Positions 3,437-50,249 are shown, numbered from the stretch's first letter. The stretch: 64,000 bases of DNA from Minisyncoccia bacterium (GCA_049305795.1 JBAQPM010000002.1:20316-84315); one strand, 5' to 3'. Made by a program: numbers and translations. The notes: generated by a model not told the origin, from the sequence alone.

Positions 3437-3604
3437 ACCACCCCTAACATCTTGCGTATTCACCAGGGGTCCTATATATTGACCCTAACGCAGTACCGCG
3501 CGTGTTCTTTGTCGTCGCCGCGGTTGCGGGCACGTGCATTTATTAAGATCGGCCCTCTGCCAAAGGTGGGGGAACCAGCCGGTAACCTTACTAATTCTTT
3601 TACT

Positions 3605-4804
3605 ATGGCAGAATTTGATCGCAGCAAGCCGCACATGAACGTAGGCACCATCGGCCACGTTGACCACGGCAAGACGACCCTCACCGCAGGTATCCTCAAT
3701 GTTCTTAACCTCAACTCTGACAAGGGCTACAAAGCTCGTGTCGAAAAGGTTGAAAACATCGACAACGCACCTGAAGAAAAGGCTCGTGGAATTACTATCG
3801 CGCTCCACCACTCAGAGTACGAGACTCCAAATCGTCACTACGCGCACATTGACGCTCCAGGACACGCTGACTACATCAAGAACATGATCACCGGTGCCGC
3901 CCAAATGGACGGTGCAGTTCTCGTAGTTGCTGCAACTGACGGCGTGATGCCTCAGACTCGTGAGCACATCCTTCTTGCAAAGCAGGTAGGTCTTAAAAAG
4001 CTCATCGTTTTCCTAAACAAGGTAGACATGGTCGCAGAAGCTGACCTTATCGACCTCGTGGAAGAGGAAATTCGCGAACTTCTCACCAAGCAGGGATACG
4101 ACGGCGCAAATACGCCAATTATCCGCGGTTCAGGTCTCAAGGCTCTTGAAGCAACTGCTGCAGATAATGAGTTTGCCCTTAAGGTGAAAGAGCTTGTCGA
4201 CACTATGGATACGTACTTTGACGCTCCAGAGCGTGAGACCAGCAAGCCATTCCTTATGCCTATCGAAGACATCTTCTCAATTGAAGGTCGCGGCACCGTG
4301 GTTACGGGTCGTATCGAGCGCGGCATCGTAAAGGTTGGCGAGGAAGTCGAAATCGTGGGTATGCACCCAACGGCAAAGACAACCGTTACTGGTATCGAGA
4401 TGTTTAACAAGCAGCTCACAGAGGGTATGGCGGGCGACAACGCCGGCATCCTCCTTCGCGGCACCAAGAAAGAAGACGTACATCGCGGTCAGGTGCTCGC
4501 AAAGACTGGATCCGTTACTCCGCACACGGATTTCGAAGCCGAGGTATACATCCTTGGTAAGGACGAAGGTGGACGCCACACACCATTCTTCTCTGGCTAC
4601 AAGCCTCAGTTCTACATCGGTACTACCGACGTAACTGGCGAAGTAACCCTCGCGGAAGGAAAGGAAATGGTTATGCCAGGCGACACGGTTACTTTCAAAG
4701 TAAAACTTGTTTCCCCAATCGCCCTTGAAGATCAGCGTCGCTTCGCTATTCGCGAAGGTGGCAAGACTGTAGGTGCCGGTGTGGTAACAAAGATCGTCGC
4801 ATAA
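3605..4804 (+). CDS. tuf: Elongation factor Tu
   Basis: ATG at 3605 gives [28 protein letters not shown]; about 400 aa, canonical EF-Tu; upstream part of the listed ORF is non-coding extension. Confidence 0.95.
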
Positions 4805-4822
4805 CACTGATCCTAAACTCGT

Positions 4823-5188
4823 ATGGCAACTGCAAAAGCAATAAAGACTCCAAAGAAAGCCGCGGCAACTGCGATTCCCGCAGAACCAAAGCTTCGTATC
4901 CGAGTCCGTGCCTACGAGCACAAGATTCTTGATCTTTCGGTTAAGCAAATCATGGACACTGCCGCTCGCTTTGATGCGAAAACGGTGGGTCCTGTGCCGC
5001 TTCCAACCGAAATCAAGCGTTGGACCGTAAACCGCTCGACATTCGTCCACAAAGACGCACGCGAGCAGTTTGAGATGCGTATTCACAAGCGTCTCATCGA
5101 TATCCTCTCGCCTTCAGGCAAGGTTGTTGAGGCTTTAACGAATTTAAACCTACCTTCAGGCGTCACTATCGACGTAAAGATGGTGTAA
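4823..5188 (+). CDS. rpsJ: 30S ribosomal protein S10 with N-terminal extension
   Basis: IRVRAYEHKILDLSVKQIMDTA...KDAREQFEMRIHKRLIDI matches S10. Confidence 0.9.
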   Translation: MATAKAIKTPKKAAATAIPAEPKLRIRVRAYEHKILDLSVKQIMDTAARFDAKTVGPVPLPTEIKRWTVNRSTFVHKDAREQFEMRIHKRLIDILSPSGKVVEALTNLNLPSGVTIDVKMV

Positions 5189-5226
5189 AGCGCTTCCAAA
5201 AAAACCTCTCGAACACTGGAGATTTG

Positions 5227-5253
5227 AAAAACTGCCCGAAAGGGCAGTTTTTC
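5227..5253 (+). terminator. Hairpin CTGCCC-GAAA-GGGCAG plus T5 between rpsJ and rplC (terminator or attenuator)
   Basis: Read directly; unusual position inside the S10 operon. Confidence 0.45.
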
Positions 5254-5392
5254 GTTATGTATTTGCATCTTTTGGAGTGCCCGTGTATAGTGCCCGAGTC
5301 GCTACGTACGTCCTTATGGGACGGACCAATGGCCGGAAGGTTTCCTTTTTAGGGAATCCAACGCGCCGTTTACGGCGCGATTTCTTTTTTTC

Positions 5393-6013
5393 ATGAAATT
5401 CATTCTCGCAAGAAAGCAGCGCATGACTCAAATCTTCACCGATGAGGGTCGTGCTATTGCCGGCACCGTCCTTTCGGCCGGTCCTTTGACTGTTACCCAG
5501 GTAAAGACAAAGGATTCAAAGGATGCCTATCAGGCAATCCAGGTTGGATACGGTGATCGCAAGCTTTCTCGCATCTCCAAAGCGGTTTTGGGACATACAA
5601 AGGGCAAGGGTTTTAAGGCAATCAAAGAATTTCGAGTTGATGACCTTGGTGATTTTGCTGTAGGTTCCGAAATCAAGGTCGATATTTTCTCTGCAGGGGA
5701 CGAAGTTCAGGTTTCTGGGCTCACCAAAGGTCATGGCTTTACAGGTGTTGTGAAGCGCCATGGTTTCCATGGAGGCCCTCGTTCTCACGGTCAGAAGCAC
5801 ACGGAGCGCTCACCAGGTTCTATTGGTGGAAGCGGAGGTCGTGCCGGAGGCCGCGTGGCAAAGGGTATTCGCATGGCCGGTCGTTCGGGTATGGAACGCG
5901 TCACTATCAAGGGTCTCAAGATTCTTGCGGTTGATCCAGCAACAAACGAAATCATCGTTTCAGGCGCCGTTCCTGGAGCTCCGGGCACACTTCTTGAAGT
6001 CGTCTCCAAATAA
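5393..6013 (+). CDS. rplC: 50S ribosomal protein L3
   Basis: MKFILARKQRMTQIFTDEGRAIAGTVL... typical L3. Confidence 0.9.
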   Translation: MKFILARKQRMTQIFTDEGRAIAGTVLSAGPLTVTQVKTKDSKDAYQAIQVGYGDRKLSRISKAVLGHTKGKGFKAIKEFRVDDLGDFAVGSEIKVDIFSAGDEVQVSGLTKGHGFTGVVKRHGFHGGPRSHGQKHTERSPGSIGGSGGRAGGRVAKGIRMAGRSGMERVTIKGLKILAVDPATNEIIVSGAVPGAPGTLLEVVSK

Positions 6014-24721: not shown

Positions 24722-24947
24722 GGTTCTATCCTTGTTTGTTACTTCTGAAGGGGAGAGTACCAAAAATAAAAGTAAAAGCCCACCGGAGTGAGCTTTGCTG
24801 CAGGGGCGTGTACCAATCGTTCGACTGTGGCCACCAGTCAAATTTTCGGCACGGATAACCGCTTGTCCGGCATGCTGATCCAAACTTCGCACGCCCCCGC
24901 GCTTGTAATATATAGGAGGATGGGTCGGGTATCAAATTCAAAACAAA

Positions 24948-24980
24948 ACCGCCTCAGGGCGGTTTTGTTTTATGTTTTGT
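24948..24980. terminator. Hairpin AAACAAAACCGCC-TCAGG-GCGGTTTTGTTT insulating the DUF4406 gene from the island
   Basis: 12-bp stem flanked by A/T runs, read directly. Confidence 0.4.
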
Positions 24981-25311
24981 GGCGCCACAATAAGAATTGC
25001 AGCATCCTACAAAAATATAGTCGCCGAGTACGGCTCGTTATTTTTGTGGAAGTGGCTTCATGAGGTTAGAACCTCATTACTGGAAAGCAGAGCCTCACAT
25101 TTCCTACAAGTAGTGGACGAGTGGTAGGGGAGACGAAAGCAGGAAAGCCAATCGGTGTAATCAAAAAGAGGACAGATGTTCGGAGGGATTAGAACCTCCC
25201 ATCACCGAACCCTTTATCAAAAAGCGGCTACTTCATCTCAGGAGTCCTGGTACAAGAGCTCGGATTCTCGCTACCCAAACGTGAAAATGTCATCAGTGAT
25301 AAAATTAGTGA

Positions 25312-27174
25312 ATGGCGGACGAATCGAGCAAAACTCCTATTGAGGAACTGTTTATATCCCCGAAAGACGGGTCCTTTTATAACTATGTACTGGTCTTGGT
25401 CCGTCCCAAGGGGATCTCCCGATTTGCAGACCCGCTTTGGATAGCACATAACCAGTTTCTCAAGTCAGAAAAACTTGAACTCACAGAAGATTTGCTCACA
25501 GAAGCACTTTCCCTCGTCTTCAATCTTAGTGAGCATCGAGCCAATAGGGAATACCATCCATTTCCATTCGGTAAACCATTGAGTGAAGGGAAACGAGCCA
25601 CAGTCGCCCTTCTAACAACGAATAATCAAACGACTTTAGCAAAGCTTGTCGAAGACGTTTTCCCTGATGAGATTGTTGAGGGTCTAGAGGCATCAACTCC
25701 ACTTGTAGATTTCCTTAAAGAGCTTACGGGTCGGTATTTTCAAGCACGACTGGATTTCAATAAGACACCCGGAAGACTTTTGTACAAAATGCCTCGGTTT
25801 GAGGTCTTCGAAGTACTGAAAGATGACACCTACGGATTGTGCGGATTCAATATGTATTTTTCTAACGGTACGCACGCTAACTACGAACGGACAGGTGAAC
25901 ATACGACAGGAATCAACGTACTTACCGACTACCCAATAAACTACAATGTCGGCCTCATAGATGCCCTGAAACGTGAATGGATGGTAGGCACTCAACGTGC
26001 CTATGAAGTAGGTATAGCAGGGAGATATAACGACTGGGGAGAATGGATGCCTCTGATGTATTCAGGAGACAACCATCAGATGTTTCTTGCTGAAAGCGAA
26101 CGAATGGCAGGAGATGACCGTCAGGTTGCGGGGATACTTTTCTATATCATGTGTACTGGACATCGGATCATAGAATTCGCTGTTAAAACTCCTATTGAGC
26201 TTCCTAACAAGCACTTCTCACTTGGAAGCAGAATGCATATGTATAAGTGCGAGCCACTCGACCAGACAAGCCATAGTGCTAGAGACTTTCACATTTATGA
26301 CGGCCACTACGAACTTGATGACTTAGACCCAAAGACCATCAGAAACGCAATCGCTTCAATCAATGTTGGCTTAAATCGAATGGCCTTTTCCTACGACTCC
26401 AGTGTTGATTGGTGTATTAAGTATTCAATCTATAAAGAAAGTGGCCATTCCAAACCAACTCCCACCAAGGAGCAATTGGATGTGCTTAATTCGATGCTCG
26501 TAGATTTTCCAGATACAGAGGATGCAATTGTGCTGGATATTTGTATCGATTGGTTTCATCGAGGAGAATTAGCTAGAAGGAAGAACGTCTTTCTTGCCTT
26601 TCTTTCTTATTACATCGCCCTAGAGAGTGTTGCTACCGCCATCGCTGACGGAGACGCTGACCTTGGCTTGGGATACGTCAAAGAAACAAAAGTTGAACGC
26701 AAAACCCGTGTTGTTTCTGAGATACAAAAACTCCATGACGAGCTTTACCAGTCTGACCCAGAGGAATTCATTAGGCGAGCCTACTTTGAGCAAGTTGTTG
26801 GCTTAAAAGTGAAGACTCGAAAAGTTATGGAGTTGGTATTTGGTACTGACCATGAGTATATAAAAGCTCTCTTTGAGAAAGTAGACGGCAGAGAATCTAT
26901 ATATGACTTACGAGGAGAACTTGCTCATGGAGGGATTACGTTGCTAGACCCAAGCCATCAAAAAATGATTAGGGAACGACTCCCTGAACTTGCAGAGATA
27001 GTAAGGGAGTTTGTTAGGAGAATCATCGTAAAGCCTGGCCAGGAACTTCCAAGATGGACAGGAGGAAGTACGATTTCTATGTTTCCGAGCGACCCTCGAG
27101 ACATGATGATTGCTTCAGACGATAGGATGTTCAGACATCTCGACTGGAAGATAAAGCCTGAATGGTTTGACTAA
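25312..27174 (+). CDS. Large hypothetical protein (620 aa) with C-terminal HEPN-like R-x4-H motif
   Basis: No recognisable N-terminal domain; C-terminal DLRGELAHGG fits R-x4-H within a predicted helical region; island cargo. Confidence 0.45.
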   Translation: MADESSKTPIEELFISPKDGSFYNYVLVLVRPKGISRFADPLWIAHNQFLKSEKLELTEDLLTEALSLVFNLSEHRANREYHPFPFGKPLSEGKRATVALLTTNNQTTLAKLVEDVFPDEIVEGLEASTPLVDFLKELTGRYFQARLDFNKTPGRLLYKMPRFEVFEVLKDDTYGLCGFNMYFSNGTHANYERTGEHTTGINVLTDYPINYNVGLIDALKREWMVGTQRAYEVGIAGRYNDWGEWMPLMYSGDNHQMFLAESERMAGDDRQVAGILFYIMCTGHRIIEFAVKTPIELPNKHFSLGSRMHMYKCEPLDQTSHSARDFHIYDGHYELDDLDPKTIRNAIASINVGLNRMAFSYDSSVDWCIKYSIYKESGHSKPTPTKEQLDVLNSMLVDFPDTEDAIVLDICIDWFHRGELARRKNVFLAFLSYYIALESVATAIADGDADLGLGYVKETKVERKTRVVSEIQKLHDELYQSDPEEFIRRAYFEQVVGLKVKTRKVMELVFGTDHEYIKALFEKVDGRESIYDLRGELAHGGITLLDPSHQKMIRERLPELAEIVREFVRRIIVKPGQELPRWTGGSTISMFPSDPRDMMIASDDRMFRHLDWKIKPEWFD

Positions 27175-27205
27175 AAGATTTAAGAAGTGATTTCTTCTTC
27201 AAACA

Positions 27206-27757
27206 CTACTCTGATGATGTAGATTGTCCGGGATTCTTAAAAGCTTCTTTAATGTCTCCAATAAATAGAACTTGGCCAATGCCGCCTTTTAAGGAGTGTC
27301 CCTTATAAATAAGCTGAGAATACCTCCCATGTGCTACGTGATTCCTGTAACCCTGAATCACTCTCATAATCTTCAATACAGGATCCTTTTTCCGTTGATA
27401 AAGTTCTTCAATGGATGTGATTTTAGTCCCAAAAGTTAAATTACCAACAAGAACTTTTGCATAAACTTTCTGGCAGCCGTGCATAACCATTAGGTCAATA
27501 ATTAACTCGTCAGCCAGCTTTTCAGTAAAGAAAGCTACCCAAAATACGAAATCCATTGCTGACGTATCATCCTTACTAATTCCATACTCTCCCTCAACCA
27601 TTTCCCTAACAGGAAACTTAAGTCCTTCAAACGTAATTCCCTTTTTCAAAGCCGCTGCAACAAGGTCATCTGCGCTCCCTTCAATTAATCTCTCGGCCTC
27701 TTGAAGAGAGAATCCATCTTCGCTTTCTGGCGACTCTTCCTTAATTGGGTCATTCAT
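27206..27757 (-). CDS. HEPN-like protein (R-x4-H motif, DUF4145-like)
   Basis: ATG at 27757; YRNHVAHGRY motif near the C-terminus; last gene of a four-gene minus-strand operon. Confidence 0.45.
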   Translation of the reverse strand: MNDPIKEESPESEDGFSLQEAERLIEGSADDLVAAALKKGITFEGLKFPVREMVEGEYGISKDDTSAMDFVFWVAFFTEKLADELIIDLMVMHGCQKVYAKVLVGNLTFGTKITSIEELYQRKKDPVLKIMRVIQGYRNHVAHGRYSQLIYKGHSLKGGIGQVLFIGDIKEAFKNPGQSTSSE

Positions 27758-27776
27758 GTTTAAAAATCCCACCAAA

Positions 27777-28217
27777 CTAATCCTTTAGCTCACTGACTAT
27801 CCGGTCAAATGCGTCCTGGACATCTATATTGCTCTGCGTGGTGTCTGGGTCATTTGGCCTATCTGTGAATCGGAAGATCGTACCCGAATAGATAGCCTCG
27901 TTAGTCGTAGCATCGAATATCACAAGTTCCTTGTGGGTACCGTTATTTGCTGGGTTCTCGTAAAGCTTTTCCCAGACAGCTACACAACTGTTCCTTTCTT
28001 GGCTGTAGAAAATCTCACTAGGAGTGGTGTCTTCTGTGTTTGGCTCGGCATAGTAAGACTCGATACGATTTGTGGCTTGACCAATAAACTTCGAACACTC
28101 AACCTTCCTTGAAAAGGAGTCGGCTCCGTTTCCAAAAAGTAGAAAACCAATTACAACTAATGCTAAAAGCAACAAAACTCCCAACACCAGATTCAATTTC
28201 TTTGGAGCAATAGTCAT
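27777..28217 (-). CDS. Membrane-anchored secreted hypothetical protein
   Basis: ATG at 28217 (MTIAPKKLNLVLGVLLLLALVVIGFLLF signal anchor), 1 nt after the upstream stop; ORF-track start further upstream is TTG. Confidence 0.4.
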   Translation of the reverse strand: MTIAPKKLNLVLGVLLLLALVVIGFLLFGNGADSFSRKVECSKFIGQATNRIESYYAEPNTEDTTPSEIFYSQERNSCVAVWEKLYENPANNGTHKELVIFDATTNEAIYSGTIFRFTDRPNDPDTTQSNIDVQDAFDRIVSELKD

Positions 28218-28218
28218 A

Positions 28219-28455
28219 CTACGAGCCTGAAAGGGCATACCAGATATGGGCAAAAGAACTGGTACGAGTCTCTGTCGTCGTCAGGCACGATTCCCGTTTC
28301 GTGGCTTCCTCAAATGAGGTTGTTTCAAGACCGCACATACCAACCTGTACGGCGTAATGGTAGTTTTCTAGTCGAACAATTGTTGCCCCAAACCAAATAA
28401 CTATGAGAACCAGAACAACTACCAGAGCTGAAAGTGTTTTCTCGCGTCTTGTCAT
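28219..28455 (-). CDS. Small membrane protein (78 aa)
   Basis: TM helix LSALVVVLVLIVIWFGATIV; translationally coupled between the XRE gene and downstream genes. Confidence 0.35.
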   Translation of the reverse strand: MTRREKTLSALVVVLVLIVIWFGATIVRLENYHYAVQVGMCGLETTSFEEATKRESCLTTTETRTSSFAHIWYALSGS

Positions 28456-28456
28456 G

Positions 28457-28678
28457 TTATTTCAAGAAATAGTTAATCTCCTTTTTATATATCTTCGCAA
28501 AACGCTGGAGTTCAATGACATCGACTCTCTGCTGACCTGATTCAACATTTGAGATATGGGACTGAGGACGACCTATCTTCTTAGCTGCTTGAACCTGAGT
28601 TAAACCAGCCTCTAAACGAGCCGCCTTAAGTCTTTCCACAAAGATGGCATATTCTTTCGTCTGGTTCGACTTCTTCAT
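28457..28678 (-). CDS. XRE-family (Cro/CI-type) helix-turn-helix transcriptional regulator
   Basis: LKAARLEAGLTQVQAAKKIGRPQSHISNVESGQQRV canonical HTH_XRE. Confidence 0.75.
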   Translation of the reverse strand: MKKSNQTKEYAIFVERLKAARLEAGLTQVQAAKKIGRPQSHISNVESGQQRVDVIELQRFAKIYKKEINYFLK

Positions 28679-28705
28679 ACACTAAAGGGTGTATCCAAGA
28701 AGTCA

Positions 28706-28724
28706 ATATCCAAACTTTGGATAT
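28706..28724. promoter_or_regulatory. Perfect 19-bp palindromic operator ATATCCAAA-C-TTTGGATAT in the divergent promoter region, with an extra TATCCAAGA half-site at 28692
   Basis: Read directly; located 28 nt upstream of the XRE start on the minus strand and 19 nt before the plus-strand gene. Confidence 0.45.
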
Positions 28725-28742
28725 TATTATATATTCTTCCAT

Positions 28743-29240
28743 ATGAGTACAACACCCGTTCCAGACAAGAAGACCTTTACGAAAGGGGAGGGCATTACCG
28801 CAATTATTGTTGTCTTAATTTTCTGCTTAGTCTTTTGGCAAGCAATTACATCAGTACCGAAGTCTGATACTTCAGTCCCCGTAGTAGCTCAGCCCGTTTC
28901 TACCCAGAACATTGTCGTCACGAGCCAGATAGTCAAAGCTGTTGGAGGGAAGTACCGATACTTCTTCGATATTAGGAACGAGGACAATAAGCCGTTTTCT
29001 GGCGAGGTAGGTATCGAGCTTGATAAGTCGAATGGTGAACACGTTTACGACGATTCCTTTTCGACGAATCAACCTATCCAGCCCGGAGTCGGTACTAGCC
29101 AGTTTGTTGAGACATACACCGGACCTGTCTCGGTTCATGGTTCGGACGGAGTACAGACATTCAAGTACACGGTAAAGAGTGGAGGTTCCGTGATTAAGAC
29201 AGGACAAGGGACGATATCTACCAAGCTCGAAAGCTATTAA
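28743..29240 (+). CDS. Membrane-anchored secreted hypothetical protein (165 aa)
   Basis: ATG at 28743; MSTTPVPDKK...ITAIIVVLIFCLVFWQAI signal anchor; divergent from the XRE gene. Confidence 0.45.
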   Translation: MSTTPVPDKKTFTKGEGITAIIVVLIFCLVFWQAITSVPKSDTSVPVVAQPVSTQNIVVTSQIVKAVGGKYRYFFDIRNEDNKPFSGEVGIELDKSNGEHVYDDSFSTNQPIQPGVGTSQFVETYTGPVSVHGSDGVQTFKYTVKSGGSVIKTGQGTISTKLESY

Positions 29241-29868: not shown

Positions 29869-30127
29869 CGCGAAAGACCTTCTAACCAGCCAACTAGAGT
29901 TCATAAACGAACTTGTTATGGATGATGGTCGAAACGAAGCCATGTACGTCTACTCACTGGATGCAATAGAGCAGATGAGGTACGACAACTTCGAAACCAT
30001 CAGAGTACATCTCAATGCTCTACAGAGAATGCTTTCAGAGAAGCAACGCGAAATCGTTATTGCTCGTCGCCTAGTCGCTTTCATTAGCACGGGCAAAGAG
30101 ACTCCTGTCTATGAATACGCCGCTTAG
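29855..30127 (+). CDS. Hypothetical protein (90 aa)
   Basis: Overlaps neighbours by 14 and 17 nt. Confidence 0.3.
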   Translation: MTTSDAKDLLTSQLEFINELVMDDGRNEAMYVYSLDAIEQMRYDNFETIRVHLNALQRMLSEKQREIVIARRLVAFISTGKETPVYEYAA

Positions 30128-30524
30128 ATTCCCAGGATTCGACACGAGATACAACGGAAACTACGAGAGAAACTTCTTCATGTATCCAAACATCTTGTCA
30201 GAATACTGGTGTCAGTTGTCTGGCTCTGAGCAAAAGGTTCTCGATTTTATTCTCCGACAAACAATTGGGTGGAGGAAATCCTACGACAGGATTGCCCTTA
30301 GTCAGTTTGTAAATGGAGTGGGGGAGAGCAATCGAGGAACGGGTCTCTCAACCTCACAGGTCCATAGAGCAATTAAATCTCTGGAAGAGAAAGGATTCAT
30401 TGAAGTAAAAAGAAACAAGAATCGTCCAAGCACCTTTAGCCTTGTTCTGGTTCCGGAAGAGGAAGAAGTGAAAGCTGAAGACTTCAAGGCTTTCGATGCA
30501 TTCAAAGATGTCCGTTGGATATAA
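30111..30524 (+). CDS. Winged-helix replication-initiator or replisome-organizer-like protein (phage/plasmid type)
   Basis: SGSEQKVLDFILRQTIGW...GLSTSQVHRAIKSLEEKGFIEVKR resembles DnaD/phage replication protein N-terminal wHTH; acidic tail. Confidence 0.4.
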   Translation: MNTPLRFPGFDTRYNGNYERNFFMYPNILSEYWCQLSGSEQKVLDFILRQTIGWRKSYDRIALSQFVNGVGESNRGTGLSTSQVHRAIKSLEEKGFIEVKRNKNRPSTFSLVLVPEEEEVKAEDFKAFDAFKDVRWI

Positions 30525-30772: not shown

Positions 30773-30982
30773 ATGAACAGCATAGAAGACCTCAGGGACT
30801 ACGTTATCGCAGATGTCATCCGCCAGGTTGAGTCCATGTCGCGGGAGGAGTTAGTGCAGACACTCGTATTGATTTGCACCACGCCTCTCGAAAAGATGGA
30901 CGCAAACGAATTGCTGGAATTCAGACAGACCTACTCAAAACTTTGGCCATTAAAATCACATGCACAGGGAAGATCAGGATAA
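30773..30982 (+). CDS. Hypothetical protein (69 aa)
   Basis: ORF only; overlaps the recombinase start by 23 nt. Confidence 0.25.
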   Translation: MNSIEDLRDYVIADVIRQVESMSREELVQTLVLICTTPLEKMDANELLEFRQTYSKLWPLKSHAQGRSG

Positions 30983-32726
30983 AGGGCTTAAATATGTTCT
31001 CTATGCCAGACGTTCGATAAAAGCGAACAGGACTGAGGAGGATAGAGGGGTCCCCTCGATTATGTCTCAGCTAACTGAGGTGAGGGAGATTGCAGACCAG
31101 AGAGGGTTAAAAATCGTTAAGGAATTCACGGAGACAGAATCAGCTAGTGAACCCTTTCAACGGCCAGAGTTTACGGAGATGATTGAATTCATCAAGGCAG
31201 GAAAAGCTAATGCCATCCTCTGCTTTAAAATGGACCGACTGGCACGCAACTCGGTAGACGAGGGCATAATCAAGCATCTGCTCCAGAAGGGAGTCATCCA
31301 GAACATTCGGTCTTCTGACCGAAGCTGGTACTCGGACGACCATACGCTTATTTGGTCTGTGGAGTTTGGTACATCAACGCAGTATTCCCGCGACCTCAAG
31401 AAGCATATTAAGAGAGGACAGATGGAGGCACTACGTCGTGGCTTCAGGCCGTGCCTCGCACCAATTGGCTACAAGAACACAAAGTACCGAGAGAAGGGGA
31501 AACCAGAGGTGTGTGAGATAGATGAGCACAATGCTGTGCTCATAAAGAAGATATTCAAACTCGTACTTTCACGGCAGTACACACCCTTTCAGGTATATAT
31601 GCTTTCGGTAAAGGAATGGGGAATGAGAGCGCGTAAGACGAGCAGAAACCCGAATGGAAGGCCGTTGTCTTTGCATGGCTTCTATAACATTCTCAACAAC
31701 TCCTTTTATTACGGTGAGTTCACCTGGTCCGTTAGGAATGGAGAGAAGGATGCCGAAATCATCACCTATCAAGGTACTCACGAACCGCTAATCAGTCGTG
31801 CTGAATTCGATGAGGTACAGAGGCTGCTTGGAAAGAAAGGGAAGCCTCGTAATATCACTCATGTTCATACCTACACAGGACTCATGCGTTGTGGTGCATG
31901 TGGGGCGCGTATCACTTGCGAGAAGAAGATAAAGACGCAGATGAATGGGAATGTTCACGAATACTCCTACTACCGATGCACAGGACAGATAAACAAGGAC
32001 TGCAAACAGAAGTCTGTGACGGAAAAGCAACTGGAAGTCGTATTCACTGACTTCCTATCCTCAATCCGAATAGACGCTCGGTTCCACGAGTGGGCTATGA
32101 CTGAACTCAAAAGCGAATATGAAAAGGAATCCAATGATAAGGACTCTATCCTCTACAAGCAGGAACGAGCACTCAAGGCCACACAGCAGCAGCTAACGAC
32201 CCTCTTTGAGATGAGGCTGGCAAGTGAGATTGAGGGTGATGAGTATAAGGAACGTAGAGCAACCCTTGAAGCAGAGGAGCGAAGACTGAAAGTTGAAATC
32301 GAGTCAGTGGACCAGCGATTCAAGACCTGGATAGATGATGCAGAACGCCTTATGACTTTTGCTGAACGAGCGACAGAACAGTTCCAAAAGGGAGGACAAC
32401 AGGAGAAGCGAGCAATTATTGCAGCTCTTGGAGATGAGCATGTTCTCGACCAGGGAATACTTACTATGAATACGGAAAAACCAGTACAGGTTCTACTGGA
32501 AGCAAGCTCACTCGGTATTCCATTAGAACCTCCAAATAAGGAGGAAGAATATACACAAAAAGACCCTTTCGGGTCCTTTCATGAAACTAGGTGGAGGTGG
32601 GGAGAATTGAACCCCCGTCCGAATCTTTCACAAGAAAATGTTTCTACGACGCATAGCCGGTATTGGTGTTTCGGCAGGAATATAAGAACACCGGCAAAAG
32701 CATTCCTACCTGATCCCGGGGTTTAA
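30960..32726 (+). CDS. Large serine recombinase (integrase); C-terminal ~45 codons read antisense through the 3' end of tmRNA
   Basis: N-terminal resolvase domain with catalytic Ser in YVLYARRS, recombinase domain, CGACGARITC zinc ribbon, coiled-coil region QERALKATQQQLTTLFEM. Confidence 0.85.
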   Translation: MHREDQDKGLKYVLYARRSIKANRTEEDRGVPSIMSQLTEVREIADQRGLKIVKEFTETESASEPFQRPEFTEMIEFIKAGKANAILCFKMDRLARNSVDEGIIKHLLQKGVIQNIRSSDRSWYSDDHTLIWSVEFGTSTQYSRDLKKHIKRGQMEALRRGFRPCLAPIGYKNTKYREKGKPEVCEIDEHNAVLIKKIFKLVLSRQYTPFQVYMLSVKEWGMRARKTSRNPNGRPLSLHGFYNILNNSFYYGEFTWSVRNGEKDAEIITYQGTHEPLISRAEFDEVQRLLGKKGKPRNITHVHTYTGLMRCGACGARITCEKKIKTQMNGNVHEYSYYRCTGQINKDCKQKSVTEKQLEVVFTDFLSSIRIDARFHEWAMTELKSEYEKESNDKDSILYKQERALKATQQQLTTLFEMRLASEIEGDEYKERRATLEAEERRLKVEIESVDQRFKTWIDDAERLMTFAERATEQFQKGGQQEKRAIIAALGDEHVLDQGILTMNTEKPVQVLLEASSLGIPLEPPNKEEEYTQKDPFGSFHETRWRWGELNPRPNLSQENVSTTHSRYWCFGRNIRTPAKAFLPDPGV

Positions 32727-32998
32727 ACGCGGTGCGTGGGAAGTGCACTGCATCGATCTCATAGAAGATTCCGCCCGCTCCTTCCGCTATGAGAGCCGGG
32801 AAGGGCGAACGTCGCTTAGGTGAAAGGTTCTTACGCCTTGACGTAAGCGAACGCGAAATCATTCATACCGAAGTATGGTGACTTCACGCTTGCAAGAGTG
32901 TTCTTGGCAAGTTTAGTGCCTCACGGATTTAGGTGTCGTTGAGGCAAGCACCGCGTCGCGCATTTTCAAGGAACAGACCGTCGAAACCGGTCACCCCC
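32590..32998 (-). ncRNA. ssrA: tmRNA (transfer-messenger RNA)
   Basis: Minus-strand 5' end GGGGGTGACCGGTTTCGACGG and 3' end GGACGGGGGTTCAATTCTCCCCACCTCCACC match the tmRNA tRNA-like domain (compare E. coli GGGGCUGAUUCUGGAUUCGACGG ... GGACGCGGGUUCAACUCCCGCCAGCUCCACCA); adjacent smpB. Confidence 0.8.
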
Positions 32999-48170: not shown

Positions 48171-50249
48171 ATGAAGTATCTGCTAAATAAAACATCCTGC
48201 CTTGTCGTATTTTTAGCTCTCGGCTTTTTGTTTCCCTTGGCATTTGTACGCGCCGAAGCTGCTGATGTTGCTCCTCACAACATGACTTCGAACACCTTGC
48301 CAGTTCCTTATGTAGCTTCAGCCAACTGTGAATACCGTGCGACTTATACTGCATGGAAGGCATTTGACGGGGTTGTTTCATCAGATACTGGTAGGTGGTT
48401 GTGTGGAATTATCCCAGGATGGCTTAAAATTGATTTGGGTTCGGGAAACAGAACAATCGTAAACTATTATGTTGTAAAAGGACCAGATGGGGGACACCTT
48501 ACTTATGCGCCAAAAAGTTGGACACTGGATGGTTCAAACGACAATAGCACATGGAATACGGTCGACACTGTTACCAACCAAAAACGCTGGTCTGCATATG
48601 AAAGTCGGACGTTTACTTCTGATGTTGCTACTACTGCTTACAGATATTACCGATTGAGCATTTCTCAATCAAATAATGCTACGTATGAATCTATAACCGA
48701 GCTTTATTTGTATCGTCAGGAACCAACTACTACTACCGCTTATACGCTTACCGGTCCTGTTGGAGGTACAAATAGAATTGCTAGCAGAAATTTTACAATA
48801 ACTCCCAATGGGGTTTTTACAGGAACCATAACTCCAAGCGACAGTGGCGCTGGGGGCACATTTACCCCAGATAGTTTGACATGGAGCGCCAGTAAAGCGT
48901 CTAAAACATTTACATATACTCCAGCAAGTACTGCTGCTAAAACTATTTCGACGACCAATGATGGTGGTCTCACTAATCCTTCTAGCCTAACCTATTACTC
49001 AACCACGCCATATACAATCTTGCCCACAGATTTATGGGACAACGCTTATTCAACCAATGAAACAAATTATTACCTGTCCAGTGCGATGGCAAGATTGATA
49101 GTCCAAACAAATGCAGTTGGATTAAAGTTTACAGTTTGGAGTACAGGAGTAGGGATTAGCAATCCGAAAGTGATTGTGCTGGTCGACGGTGTGCCGACGG
49201 TATACACTCCCGTTGCCAACGGGGAAAGTGTTTTTTATGTTGATGGCCTTCCAGCCGGGACAAAGACTGTACAAATTATATCCGGTCTACAAGACTTTTT
49301 ACGGCGCGGCACTTTTCTTAAAACAGTCGAATGGTTCGGTCCCAGCACGACCATTACGCCACCTGCCACAACTAATCGCATAACATTTTACGGCGATTCA
49401 ACTACCGTTGGCTGGAGCACGACAAATCCGCCAACAGAAGCCCCTGCGAGTGTTGTCCGAGCTCATTTTAATCAAACCCGATCTACGCTTTTGGAAGCAT
49501 GGGGAGGGCGCGCCTTGTATCATGATTCTACGGGAACAACTGTAAAGCAGTCACTTATTGATAATCTTGTATTAGGTAATCCATCTCATATTTGGTTAGG
49601 AATCGGCGTCAATGATTATAAGGCCGGTGGAGACTGGAGCGCTGAGGATTTTGGCACGGTGTATGGAGATTTATTGGACAGATTGCATGCCGCTCTTCCG
49701 AACACAAAAATTATTGCTCAAACGCCGATTCCTTATACCTTAGAATCGTATGTAAATGATTACGGAGATTCTCGCTCAGATTATGCCAATCAAATTATGA
49801 CCTTGGCAGCATCGCGATCTTGGGTGACGGGAGTAGATGGAACAACTGTTATGGCAAGTTATTCTGAAAATGGCGCACATCCTAATACTGCCGAAAGCGC
49901 CCAATGGGCGACGACGATGGAGCCTTATTTAGAATTGAGCACCGACGCCACCCTCTCTAATCTTGCTATCAGCTCGGGTATCTTAACACCAACTTTTGAT
50001 TCAGAAACTACAAGCTATACAGTCAATGTCGCCAATACTGTCGATTCAATCATAGTGACCCCGACAGCTAATGACGTCAGTACCATCGTCACAGTCAATG
50101 GAACGACTACAGGTTCGGACTCTGCCTCAGATCCGATTTCTCTAGACGTAGGAGAAAACGCGATTACCATCGAAGCTACCGCCCAGGACGGAGAAACGGT
50201 AGAAGACTACACAGTCACAGTAACGAGGCTATTGGCATGCACGTTATAG
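48171..50249 (+). CDS. Secreted multidomain protein: signal peptide, F5/8 type C (discoidin) lectin-like domain, SGNH/GDSL hydrolase domain, C-terminal cadherin-like beta-sandwich
   Basis: Signal LVVFLALGFLFPLAFVRA; discoidin-like W..G.WL...WLKIDLG...WTLDGSNDNSTW; GDS motif in ITFYGDSTTVGW and GVNDY block; C-terminal LSNLAISSGILTPTFDSETTSYTVNV. Confidence 0.55.
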   Translation: MKYLLNKTSCLVVFLALGFLFPLAFVRAEAADVAPHNMTSNTLPVPYVASANCEYRATYTAWKAFDGVVSSDTGRWLCGIIPGWLKIDLGSGNRTIVNYYVVKGPDGGHLTYAPKSWTLDGSNDNSTWNTVDTVTNQKRWSAYESRTFTSDVATTAYRYYRLSISQSNNATYESITELYLYRQEPTTTTAYTLTGPVGGTNRIASRNFTITPNGVFTGTITPSDSGAGGTFTPDSLTWSASKASKTFTYTPASTAAKTISTTNDGGLTNPSSLTYYSTTPYTILPTDLWDNAYSTNETNYYLSSAMARLIVQTNAVGLKFTVWSTGVGISNPKVIVLVDGVPTVYTPVANGESVFYVDGLPAGTKTVQIISGLQDFLRRGTFLKTVEWFGPSTTITPPATTNRITFYGDSTTVGWSTTNPPTEAPASVVRAHFNQTRSTLLEAWGGRALYHDSTGTTVKQSLIDNLVLGNPSHIWLGIGVNDYKAGGDWSAEDFGTVYGDLLDRLHAALPNTKIIAQTPIPYTLESYVNDYGDSRSDYANQIMTLAASRSWVTGVDGTTVMASYSENGAHPNTAESAQWATTMEPYLELSTDATLSNLAISSGILTPTFDSETTSYTVNVANTVDSIIVTPTANDVSTIVTVNGTTTGSDSASDPISLDVGENAITIEATAQDGETVEDYTVTVTRLLACTL

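Follow-up and report, generated by a model that had tools for sequence, protein, structure and literature searches.

HEPN proteins are well known as toxins and defence effectors. The toxins of the HEPN-MNT (HepT-MntA) systems belong to the small HEPN proteins, are all-helical, and have a catalytic R-x4-H motif. ApeA (Gao_Ape) is an abortive-infection system that consists of a single HEPN protein (Gao et al. 2020; Juozapaitis et al. 2026, preprint 10.64898/2026.01.26.701840), and its HEPN domain is also closest to HepT (10.64898/2026.01.26.701840). Proteins of the HEPN_RiboL-PSP type (PF18735) include PD-T4-2, PD-T4-5, and PD-T7-3, which have been validated as anti-phage proteins (Vassallo et al. 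2022, tabulated in PMC10952713). Here, two HEPN families that lie outside all the curated libraries scanned are described from a 64,000-nucleotide stretch of DNA from a Minisyncoccia bacterium (GCA_049305795.1 JBAQPM010000002.1:20316-84315), which is referred to as the window. The two genes, encoding proteins of 620 and 183 residues, converge within positions 25312–28678. Both proteins are HEPN-like; however, their genes are independent of each other and happen to adjoin, and do not form a paired system.

The interval contains five open reading frames (ORFs), which were found as a first-pass annotation of the window had them, including the XRE domain, the membrane anchors, and both R-x4-H motifs:

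25312–27174, plus strand: 620-residue protein, stand-alone HEPN gene (from the ORF table)
26911–26928, plus strand: codons of the candidate HEPN catalytic motif R534-G-E-L-A-H539, invariant in 23/23 sequences and located in helix 530–538 of the model
27206–27757 (ATG start), minus strand: 183-residue putative minimal HEPN protein, encoded at the end of the XRE operon; 189 residues if translation starts at the TTG at 27775
27329–27346, minus strand: codons of the candidate HEPN catalytic motif R138-N-H-V-A-H143, with R138 and H143 in 34/34 sequences
27777–28217 (ATG start), minus strand: 146-residue protein with one N-terminal membrane anchor; a TTG start at 28253 gives 158 residues
28219–28455, minus strand: 78-residue protein with a single transmembrane helix (hydrophobic segment at residues ~4–25)
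28457–28678, minus strand: XRE/Cro-CI-type helix-turn-helix repressor of 73 residues, first gene of the minus-strand operon (Pfam HTH_3, E 2.5e-12)

The XRE protein also matches PHROG families of transcriptional repressors (~1e-10). The 78-residue and 146/158-residue proteins each have one N-terminal hydrophobic segment in a Kyte-Doolittle scan. No family match to the 78-residue protein was found in Pfam, PADLOC, PHROG, or NCBIfam. The 146-residue protein has no match in Pfam, PADLOC, or PHROG and a chance-level one in NCBIfam (E 0.028), and it is absent beside every homologue of either HEPN protein in the collected loci. The 1-nucleotide gaps that had been described throughout the operon separate the XRE gene from that of the 78-residue protein and the latter from the gene of the 146-residue protein. 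By contrast, the gap between the genes of the 146-residue and 183-residue proteins is 1 nucleotide long with the TTG start of the 183-residue protein but 19 nucleotides long with the ATG start, which is the one annotated by NCBI. The stop codons of the convergent HEPN genes are 31 nucleotides apart. The motifs had been placed at the very C-termini of the proteins; however, RGELAH occupies residues 534–539 of 620, and RNHVAH residues 138–143 of 183. The bare R-x4-6-H pattern, which had been read as a catalytic signature, does not exceed chance (3.55 matches are expected from the composition of the 620-residue protein and two are seen), whereas the invariance of the motifs among homologues is informative. 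Neither HEPN protein matches a curated family from Pfam, PADLOC, PHROG, or NCBIfam at E ≤ 1, and it is therefore fair to call them undescribed.

The five genes had been proposed to constitute one system. A check of co-occurrence that had been set beforehand found no locus with both HEPN families, which was the outcome named in advance as refuting the proposal: in ~20 + 16 other distinct loci, the two families are never found in the same place. When hidden Markov models of both families were run on all ORFs of 38 loci, no locus was matched by both. Inspection of 17 further metagenome loci with small HEPN genes, on which the large-family profile was not run, showed no 620-like large ORF within ~2.5 kb. 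A 678-residue protein encoded beside a small HEPN gene in locus L020 was considered as a relative of the 620-residue protein and found to be unrelated. The closest homologue of the large protein, 89% identical, is encoded in locus L001, the DNA of which is 82% identical to that of the window between positions 25278 and 27174 only. This shared stretch consists of the 620-residue protein gene and 34 nucleotides upstream of it, and ends at the stop codon. The DNA homology is thus confined to the gene, which indicates that the large gene moves alone. In the loci that encode the homologues with 89%, 59%, and 55% identity, tblastn searches found no other gene from the window island, except for a 34%-identical serine recombinase in L003. 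It is very unlikely that the two HEPN proteins, the two membrane proteins, and the XRE protein form one five-gene toxin or defence module, in which the small HEPN protein might heterodimerise with the large one or regulate it. The immediate adjacency and convergence of the genes, the detectable relationship of the two HEPN domains (hhalign E 8.5e-6), and the action of HEPN domains as dimers (10.64898/2026.01.26.701840) speak for such a module, but the families do not meet in any of the other loci, which were collected with flanks of 4–8 kb, the homology with L001 is limited to one gene, and, apart from the L003 recombinase, the other island proteins are not encoded near 620-residue homologues. 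The apparent two-HEPN module reflects the chance proximity of two genes in a cargo hotspot and is not a new multi-gene system.

The 620-residue protein has 26 homologues, which share 32–89% sequence identity and have a uniform length of ~600–660 residues. An alignment of 23 of the sequences contains 48 invariant columns, including R534, A538, H539, and G540 of the motif region and E438 from an upstream helix. The protein contains one other R-x-H match, R76..H82, in which the arginine is kept in 1/23 and the histidine in 3/23 sequences; therefore, the C-terminal motif is the meaningful one. The AlphaFold model calculated with the family alignment has a predicted local distance difference test score (pLDDT) of 85.4 and a predicted template-modelling score of 0.70. 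It is composed of N-terminal helices (residues 9–151), a beta-rich middle part (residues 156–370), and an all-helical HEPN domain (residues ~386–572), followed by a conserved tail that includes W582, the DPR motif of residues 594–596, and DW.IKPEW of residues 611–618. The HEPN domain is predicted to form an all-alpha up-down helical bundle, in which the motif is positioned in a helix and not in a loop. The structures closest to it are the HepT-type toxins SO_3166 (5yep), 7ae2, and 8xdj, and then the HEPN domain of sacsin, AbiV, and LsoA. It is this predicted fold, together with the invariant motif, that identifies the protein as HEPN-like. The HEPN regions of family members match the Pfam models MauJ (11/23), HEPN_RiboL-PSP (4/23), and HEPN_Apea (2/23).

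The large family joins its HEPN domain to an unrecognised region of ~380 residues. That no N-terminal domain could be recognised, as stated in the first-pass annotation, was borne out by Foldseek searches of the PDB and BFVD, a profile search of PDB sequences, and Pfam, none of which gave a match to this region; the whole model has no Foldseek match in the PDB or BFVD at E < 0.3. Many polar residues of the N-terminal ~380 residues are invariant, and the region contains the motifs FSNGS.A, YE.G..GRYN, and CTGHR.IEF, which suggests that it may hold a second functional site.

The 620-residue protein resembles ApeA in several respects. Both are products of stand-alone genes, ~500–600 residues long in the case of ApeA, that are located in defence islands; the genes of the 620-residue family are single and have restriction-modification (R-M), NACHT, SMODS/SLATT, PIN, and NERD neighbours. 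Both consist of three parts, namely N-terminal and middle domains and, at the C-terminus, a HEPN domain that has helical insertions, and both have a conserved non-catalytic region that could plausibly serve as a ligand or sensor pocket. However, the middle domain of the 620-residue protein is beta-rich, whereas a mostly helical structure is described for ApeA. The large insertion in the HEPN domain of the 620-residue protein is positioned between the E-helix and the R-x4-H helix, and not between H3 and H4. Neither the window protein nor any of the 23 members matches ApeA in PADLOC at E ≤ 1, the best match to Pfam HEPN_Apea, which is found in the 2/23 members mentioned above, has an E of 0.11, and ApeA_NTD1 is not matched. 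Because all of the ApeA profile tests failed and the insertions are placed elsewhere, the assignment of the family to ApeA was rejected.

HepT toxins provide the best structural matches of the large HEPN domain, and the 183-residue protein is similar to them in size and motif. Unlike HepT, neither protein keeps the Rx4HxY motif: the tyrosine is displaced in RNHVAHGRY and absent from RGELAHGG. No NTP_transf_2 or MNT match was found among the scanned island proteins, to which both HEPN proteins and the products of the neighbouring operon genes belonged, and such a gene occurs near a relative of the small protein in L015/L016 only. Profile searches of both HEPN families against PDB sequences gave no meaningful match, and there is no sequence-level match to any solved HEPN chain. 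The best-scoring Pfam model of the large family, matched at the start of the HEPN domain, is PF17419 MauJ, a methylamine utilisation protein of unknown function. Family member P0023 aligns with profile positions 1–104 of 116, including the R..AHG region, and two of the 23 members marginally exceed the 28-bit cut-off, with 28.7 and 29.6 bits. By contrast, the window protein has no MauJ match at E ≤ 1, and most of the matches span the first ~30 profile positions only. An N-terminal region of ~380 residues is not known from MauJ proteins. Literature searches on MauJ and HEPN, and on HEPN and Patescibacteria, found nothing relevant. Three weak PADLOC matches of 620-residue relatives to Dazbog (DzbB; E 0.0024) were discarded; the literature ties Dazbog to DUF262, which is a different architecture.

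Members of the 620-residue family were found in 17 of 185,579 species genomes, belonging to Patescibacteria, Planctomycetota, Clostridia, Armatimonadota, Humimicrobiia, Tectomicrobia, and others, and this patchy distribution points to horizontal transfer of the gene. The neighbours of the gene were clustered over 20 non-redundant loci with flanks of 4–8 kb. No operon partner is conserved across the ~20 loci, and the single recurrent neighbour is a large serine recombinase. It is located at a distance of 3.5 kb in L032 and 3.8 kb in the window, and directly downstream of the 620-residue homologue in the convergent orientation in four loci from different Patescibacteria:

L003, 8001–11238: 620-residue homologue and convergent recombinase, overlapping by 23 nucleotides
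L025, 3494–6818: 620-residue homologue and convergent recombinase, gap of ~3 nucleotides
L027, 5971–9365: 620-residue homologue and convergent recombinase, gap of ~3 nucleotides
L033, 5983–9552: 620-residue homologue and convergent recombinase, gap of ~110 nucleotides

This repeated arrangement suggests that the end of serine-recombinase elements may be a preferred cargo slot for the gene. In L025, which is from a Saccharibacteria metagenome-assembled genome, the homologue is split into two ORFs (3494–4120 and 4405–5433), which probably reflects either pseudogene formation through a frameshift or an error of the assembly. The remaining neighbours include NERD, HD, DUF5677, methyltransferase, Bro-N, and Y1 transposase (Y1_Tnp) genes in L001; PIN in L004; SMODS, SLATT_4, and a tyrosine integrase in L010; a Y1 transposase in L011–14; Mrr in L033; a NACHT STAND NTPase in L034; a type I R-M system in L035; DUF4062 in L038; and Mutator transposases, reverse transcriptases (RVT), and N6_N4 methylases elsewhere. 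The pattern is that of a stand-alone, horizontally mobile gene of cargo and defence hotspots.

The 183-residue protein is no orphan. A word-indexed homology search returned the protein itself only, whereas exhaustive phmmer searches of 1.8 billion representatives identified 37 relatives with lengths of 150–200 residues; the family consists of proteins of ~160–180 residues. In the family alignment of 34 sequences, R138, H143, and Y151 are invariant, N139, G144, and E79 are conserved to 90% or more, and the motif has the consensus LRNxVAHGRF. Many of the family members have weak matches to the HEPN clan of Pfam, approximately nine models overall, all of which are below threshold: RiboL-PSP in 15/34 (best E 3.7e-4), Apea in 8/34 (best E 2.7e-5), and further Abi_2, Swt1, Cthe2314, MAE_28990, Csm6, and DUF4145. 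In PADLOC, the relatives weakly match CARF-HEPN, Csx1, Csm6, and Cas13 models. The profile of the family aligns in hhalign with the HEPN-only part of the 620-residue family with a probability of 83% and the E given above over 109 columns, which cover the E-helix, the R..AHG helix, and the following helix; the probability is 61% for the full-length 620-residue profile. The support for the 183-residue protein being a minimal HEPN protein, which comes from the invariant motif, the weak clan matches, and the profile-profile match, is good but indirect. The model most frequently matched in the small family, RiboL-PSP, is the one that also describes the validated PF18735 proteins, and one family member matches the PADLOC model PD-T4-2_B (E 0.008). 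However, all the PF18735 matches are below the curated thresholds, the 183-residue protein from the window has none at E ≤ 1, and the partner genes of PD-T4-2 are absent.

The small-HEPN gene was compared in 17 non-redundant contexts, including the window. The gene order of the window, in which XRE is followed by a membrane-anchored protein and the small HEPN, is also present in L017/L018 and, with extra genes, in L040. The XRE proteins of L017 and L040 are 68% identical to each other and their HEPN proteins 38%, whereas the window XRE is 30–39% identical to both. The closest relative with a known context (45% identity, L053) is accompanied by a divergent XRE gene. In the window, L017, L040, and L053, the distance between the small HEPN and an XRE-type gene is at most two to four genes, and ~12 other contexts lack such a gene; at least 10 of the 17 have neither XRE nor an upstream membrane protein. 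In L050, a gene for an HTH_3-Peptidase_M78 fusion is located two genes upstream of the small HEPN. Small N-terminally anchored proteins are encoded by 8 of the 30 genes adjoining the small HEPN, compared with 10 of 117 others (Fisher p 0.012, from crude ORF calls). These anchored neighbours are mutually non-homologous, except for a pair from L042 (3696–3986) and L047 (4470–4787), which are 38% identical (E 9e-12); the gene overlaps the HEPN gene in both loci, upstream of it in L042 and downstream in L047.

Other neighbours of the small HEPN are R-M operons in L019 and L048, LAGLIDADG in L041, NYN in L042, and SLFN_AlbA_2 in L052. Locus L015, and equally L016, contains an NTP_transf_2 gene and a second HEPN-like protein. 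There (L015, 3417–5519), the small HEPN gene overlaps by 4 nucleotides the gene of a 227-residue protein, which has the R-x4-H motif RKNRNKLIHN and no Pfam match, and the NTP_transf_2 (MNT-like) gene is located 400 nucleotides upstream; it is possible that these loci have an MNT plus double-HEPN arrangement. Judged by its contexts, the small HEPN is also a conflict-island gene, the links of which to XRE and membrane proteins are loose and unproven. The family keeps no fixed partner, and the XRE and anchored neighbours recur loosely.

The two HEPN genes are located in a mobile, low-GC island, as had been proposed. The guanine-plus-cytosine (GC) content is 42–45% between ~25.0 and 31 kb and ~49% around it. 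The features of the island beyond the five genes are:

28705–28725, divergent intergenic region: perfect 21-bp palindrome of 10+1+10 bp, AATATCCAAA-C-TTTGGATATT, read from the sequence and checked by reverse complementation
28689–29240 (GTG start, 183 residues) or 28743–29240 (ATG start, 165 residues), plus strand: membrane-anchored protein with no family match
30111–30524, plus strand: winged-helix protein similar to phage replication protein O (Pfam Phage_rep_O, E 5.8e-9; PHROG 678, E 6e-15)
30960–32726, plus strand: large serine recombinase of 588 residues (Pfam Resolvase, Recombinase, and Zn_ribbon_recom)
32589–32998, minus strand: complete gene of the transfer-messenger RNA (tmRNA, ssrA), located on the right edge of the island (match to Rfam RF00023 with 105 bits, E 5e-40)

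These features are those of an integrative element of ~7.7 kb with low GC content next to ssrA, which has a serine recombinase, a RepO-like protein, and a CI-like switch. The XRE gene is oriented divergently from those for replication and recombination in the island. The first gene of the divergent operon is that of the membrane-anchored protein (28689–29240), and the palindrome separates it from the XRE gene. The palindrome is a candidate operator of the XRE repressor. The last 138 nucleotides of the recombinase ORF are antisense to the 3' end of the tmRNA and its terminator. Either the C-terminus of the recombinase is encoded across the attachment site, or the tmRNA 3' end is supplied by the island. 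Just to the left of the island, between a minus-strand gene for a 220-residue protein and the 620-residue protein gene, a strong 14-bp GC-cored hairpin between A- and T-runs (24940–24971) forms a bidirectional terminator. T-arms of tRNA-like sequences were picked out by eye at 25060–25210 but have no Rfam support there; the Rfam scan of 24880–25330 detected nothing tRNA-like, and its weak matches were all to the terminator hairpin.

The explanation that fits these results best, and which we hold with moderate confidence, is that two independent HEPN genes are carried as cargo by the serine-recombinase element, the large one encoding an ApeA-like single-protein effector and the small one a minimal HEPN toxin or exclusion effector. 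Like other HEPN proteins, the 620-residue protein would most likely form dimers with a composite RNase site. The alpha+beta region of ~380 residues that precedes the HEPN domain would most likely keep the nuclease off until a trigger, for example phage infection, is sensed. By analogy to ApeA-type abortive infection, cleavage of RNA by the triggered protein would then arrest the growth of the cell. The 183-residue protein, as the product of the last gene of the repressor operon of the element, would be produced alongside the repressor in the integrated state of the element, and may act as a toxin or exclusion effector. Several observations weigh against this explanation. Neither protein matches a model of a validated defence system: PADLOC gave no match for the window proteins and marginal ones for their relatives. 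Neither family was found on IMG/VR viral contigs. The 620-residue homologues in L005–L009 and L036 have housekeeping genes as their only surroundings, with no defence neighbour. No antitoxin or immunity partner of the small HEPN was identified, and the single-sequence AlphaFold2 model of the 183-residue protein has a pLDDT of 39 and is unusable for determining its fold. The assignment of both HEPN genes to the cargo of the same element is deduced from GC content and position only; neither a copy of the tmRNA 3' end nor a direct repeat was found at the left end of the island.

In bacteriophage lambda, the exclusion genes rexA and rexB are co-transcribed with the prophage repressor gene cI and are expressed when the prophage is integrated. 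The minus-strand operon of the window, in which a repressor gene is followed by genes for membrane proteins and an effector, is analogous in layout; however, there is no sequence similarity to the lambda genes, and Rex acts through an ion channel and not an RNase. It is possible, although somewhat unlikely, that this operon is a functional unit on its own, independent of the 620-residue protein gene. It could be a cassette similar to type II toxin-antitoxin or abortive-infection systems, in which the helix-turn-helix protein represses or neutralises the HEPN toxin, or an exclusion cassette similar to cI-rexAB, with membrane proteins that would sense a signal or relay it to the HEPN RNase. The recurrence of the gene order in L017/L018 and L040, where the XRE proteins are better conserved than the HEPN proteins, the divergent XRE in L053, the excess of anchored neighbours, and the operator-like palindrome upstream favour a functional unit. 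By contrast, the non-homology of all anchored proteins but one pair, the absence of both partners from the majority of contexts, and the position of the window XRE, only distantly similar to those of L017 and L040, as a general repressor of the island divergent from the RepO and recombinase genes argue against it, and such genomes commonly contain XRE genes as well as small membrane proteins.

The placement of HEPN genes within elements also raises the question of whom they serve. One or both could stabilise the island through addiction and post-segregational killing, or be a weapon against competing elements, and have no anti-phage function. The direct vicinity of the 620-residue family to serine recombinases at element ends (L003, L025, L027, and L033), the replication and recombination genes in the small island of the window, and the inclusion of the small HEPN in the repressor operon are consistent with this. 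We nevertheless consider it doubtful, because no cognate antitoxin is visible for the stand-alone 620-residue protein gene, many family members have no mobile-element gene within 6–8 kb, and R-M, NACHT, and SMODS/SLATT neighbours are typical of anti-phage islands. It is highly improbable that the proteins bind or process RNA in a housekeeping or regulatory capacity, or that their HEPN domains are catalytically inert. HEPN domains without catalytic activity are known (Anantharaman et al. 2013, PMC3710099), and some homologues are encoded beside aspS, mraZ, or der; however, the arginine, histidine, and upstream glutamate are strictly conserved in both families (E79 of the small family at 90% or more), the spread is sparse and patchy, limited to the 17 species for the large family and to a few dozen clusters among billions of proteins, and the location in a low-GC island argues against a core function. 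A bolder combination, to which we assign a low probability, is that the XRE operon is an undescribed cI-rexAB-like exclusion cassette, in which the anchored proteins would detect a signal from the envelope or from infection and activate the minimal HEPN RNase, and that the 620-residue family is a new single-protein immune sensor-effector, the ~380-residue N-terminal fold of which would recognise a new trigger.

Patescibacteria (Candidate Phyla Radiation, CPR) have tiny genomes, in which few recognised defence systems have been reported. Both HEPN families from the window are unclassified. The large one crosses phyla and is found beside R-M, NACHT, and genes similar to those of cyclic-oligonucleotide-based anti-phage signalling systems (CBASS), as well as serine recombinases. 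If the 620-residue protein is an RNase that a trigger activates in the manner of ApeA, a new sensor would be defined by its N-terminal region. The minimal 183-residue HEPN could function in small integrative elements as a compact toxin or exclusion gene. The two families may be of use to those who mine CPR defence genes and HEPN diversity, and will be no surprise to specialists. Unrelated to the HEPN genes, a second low-GC patch (41%) at 48171–50249 of the window encodes a 692-residue, secreted-looking protein with a signal peptide.

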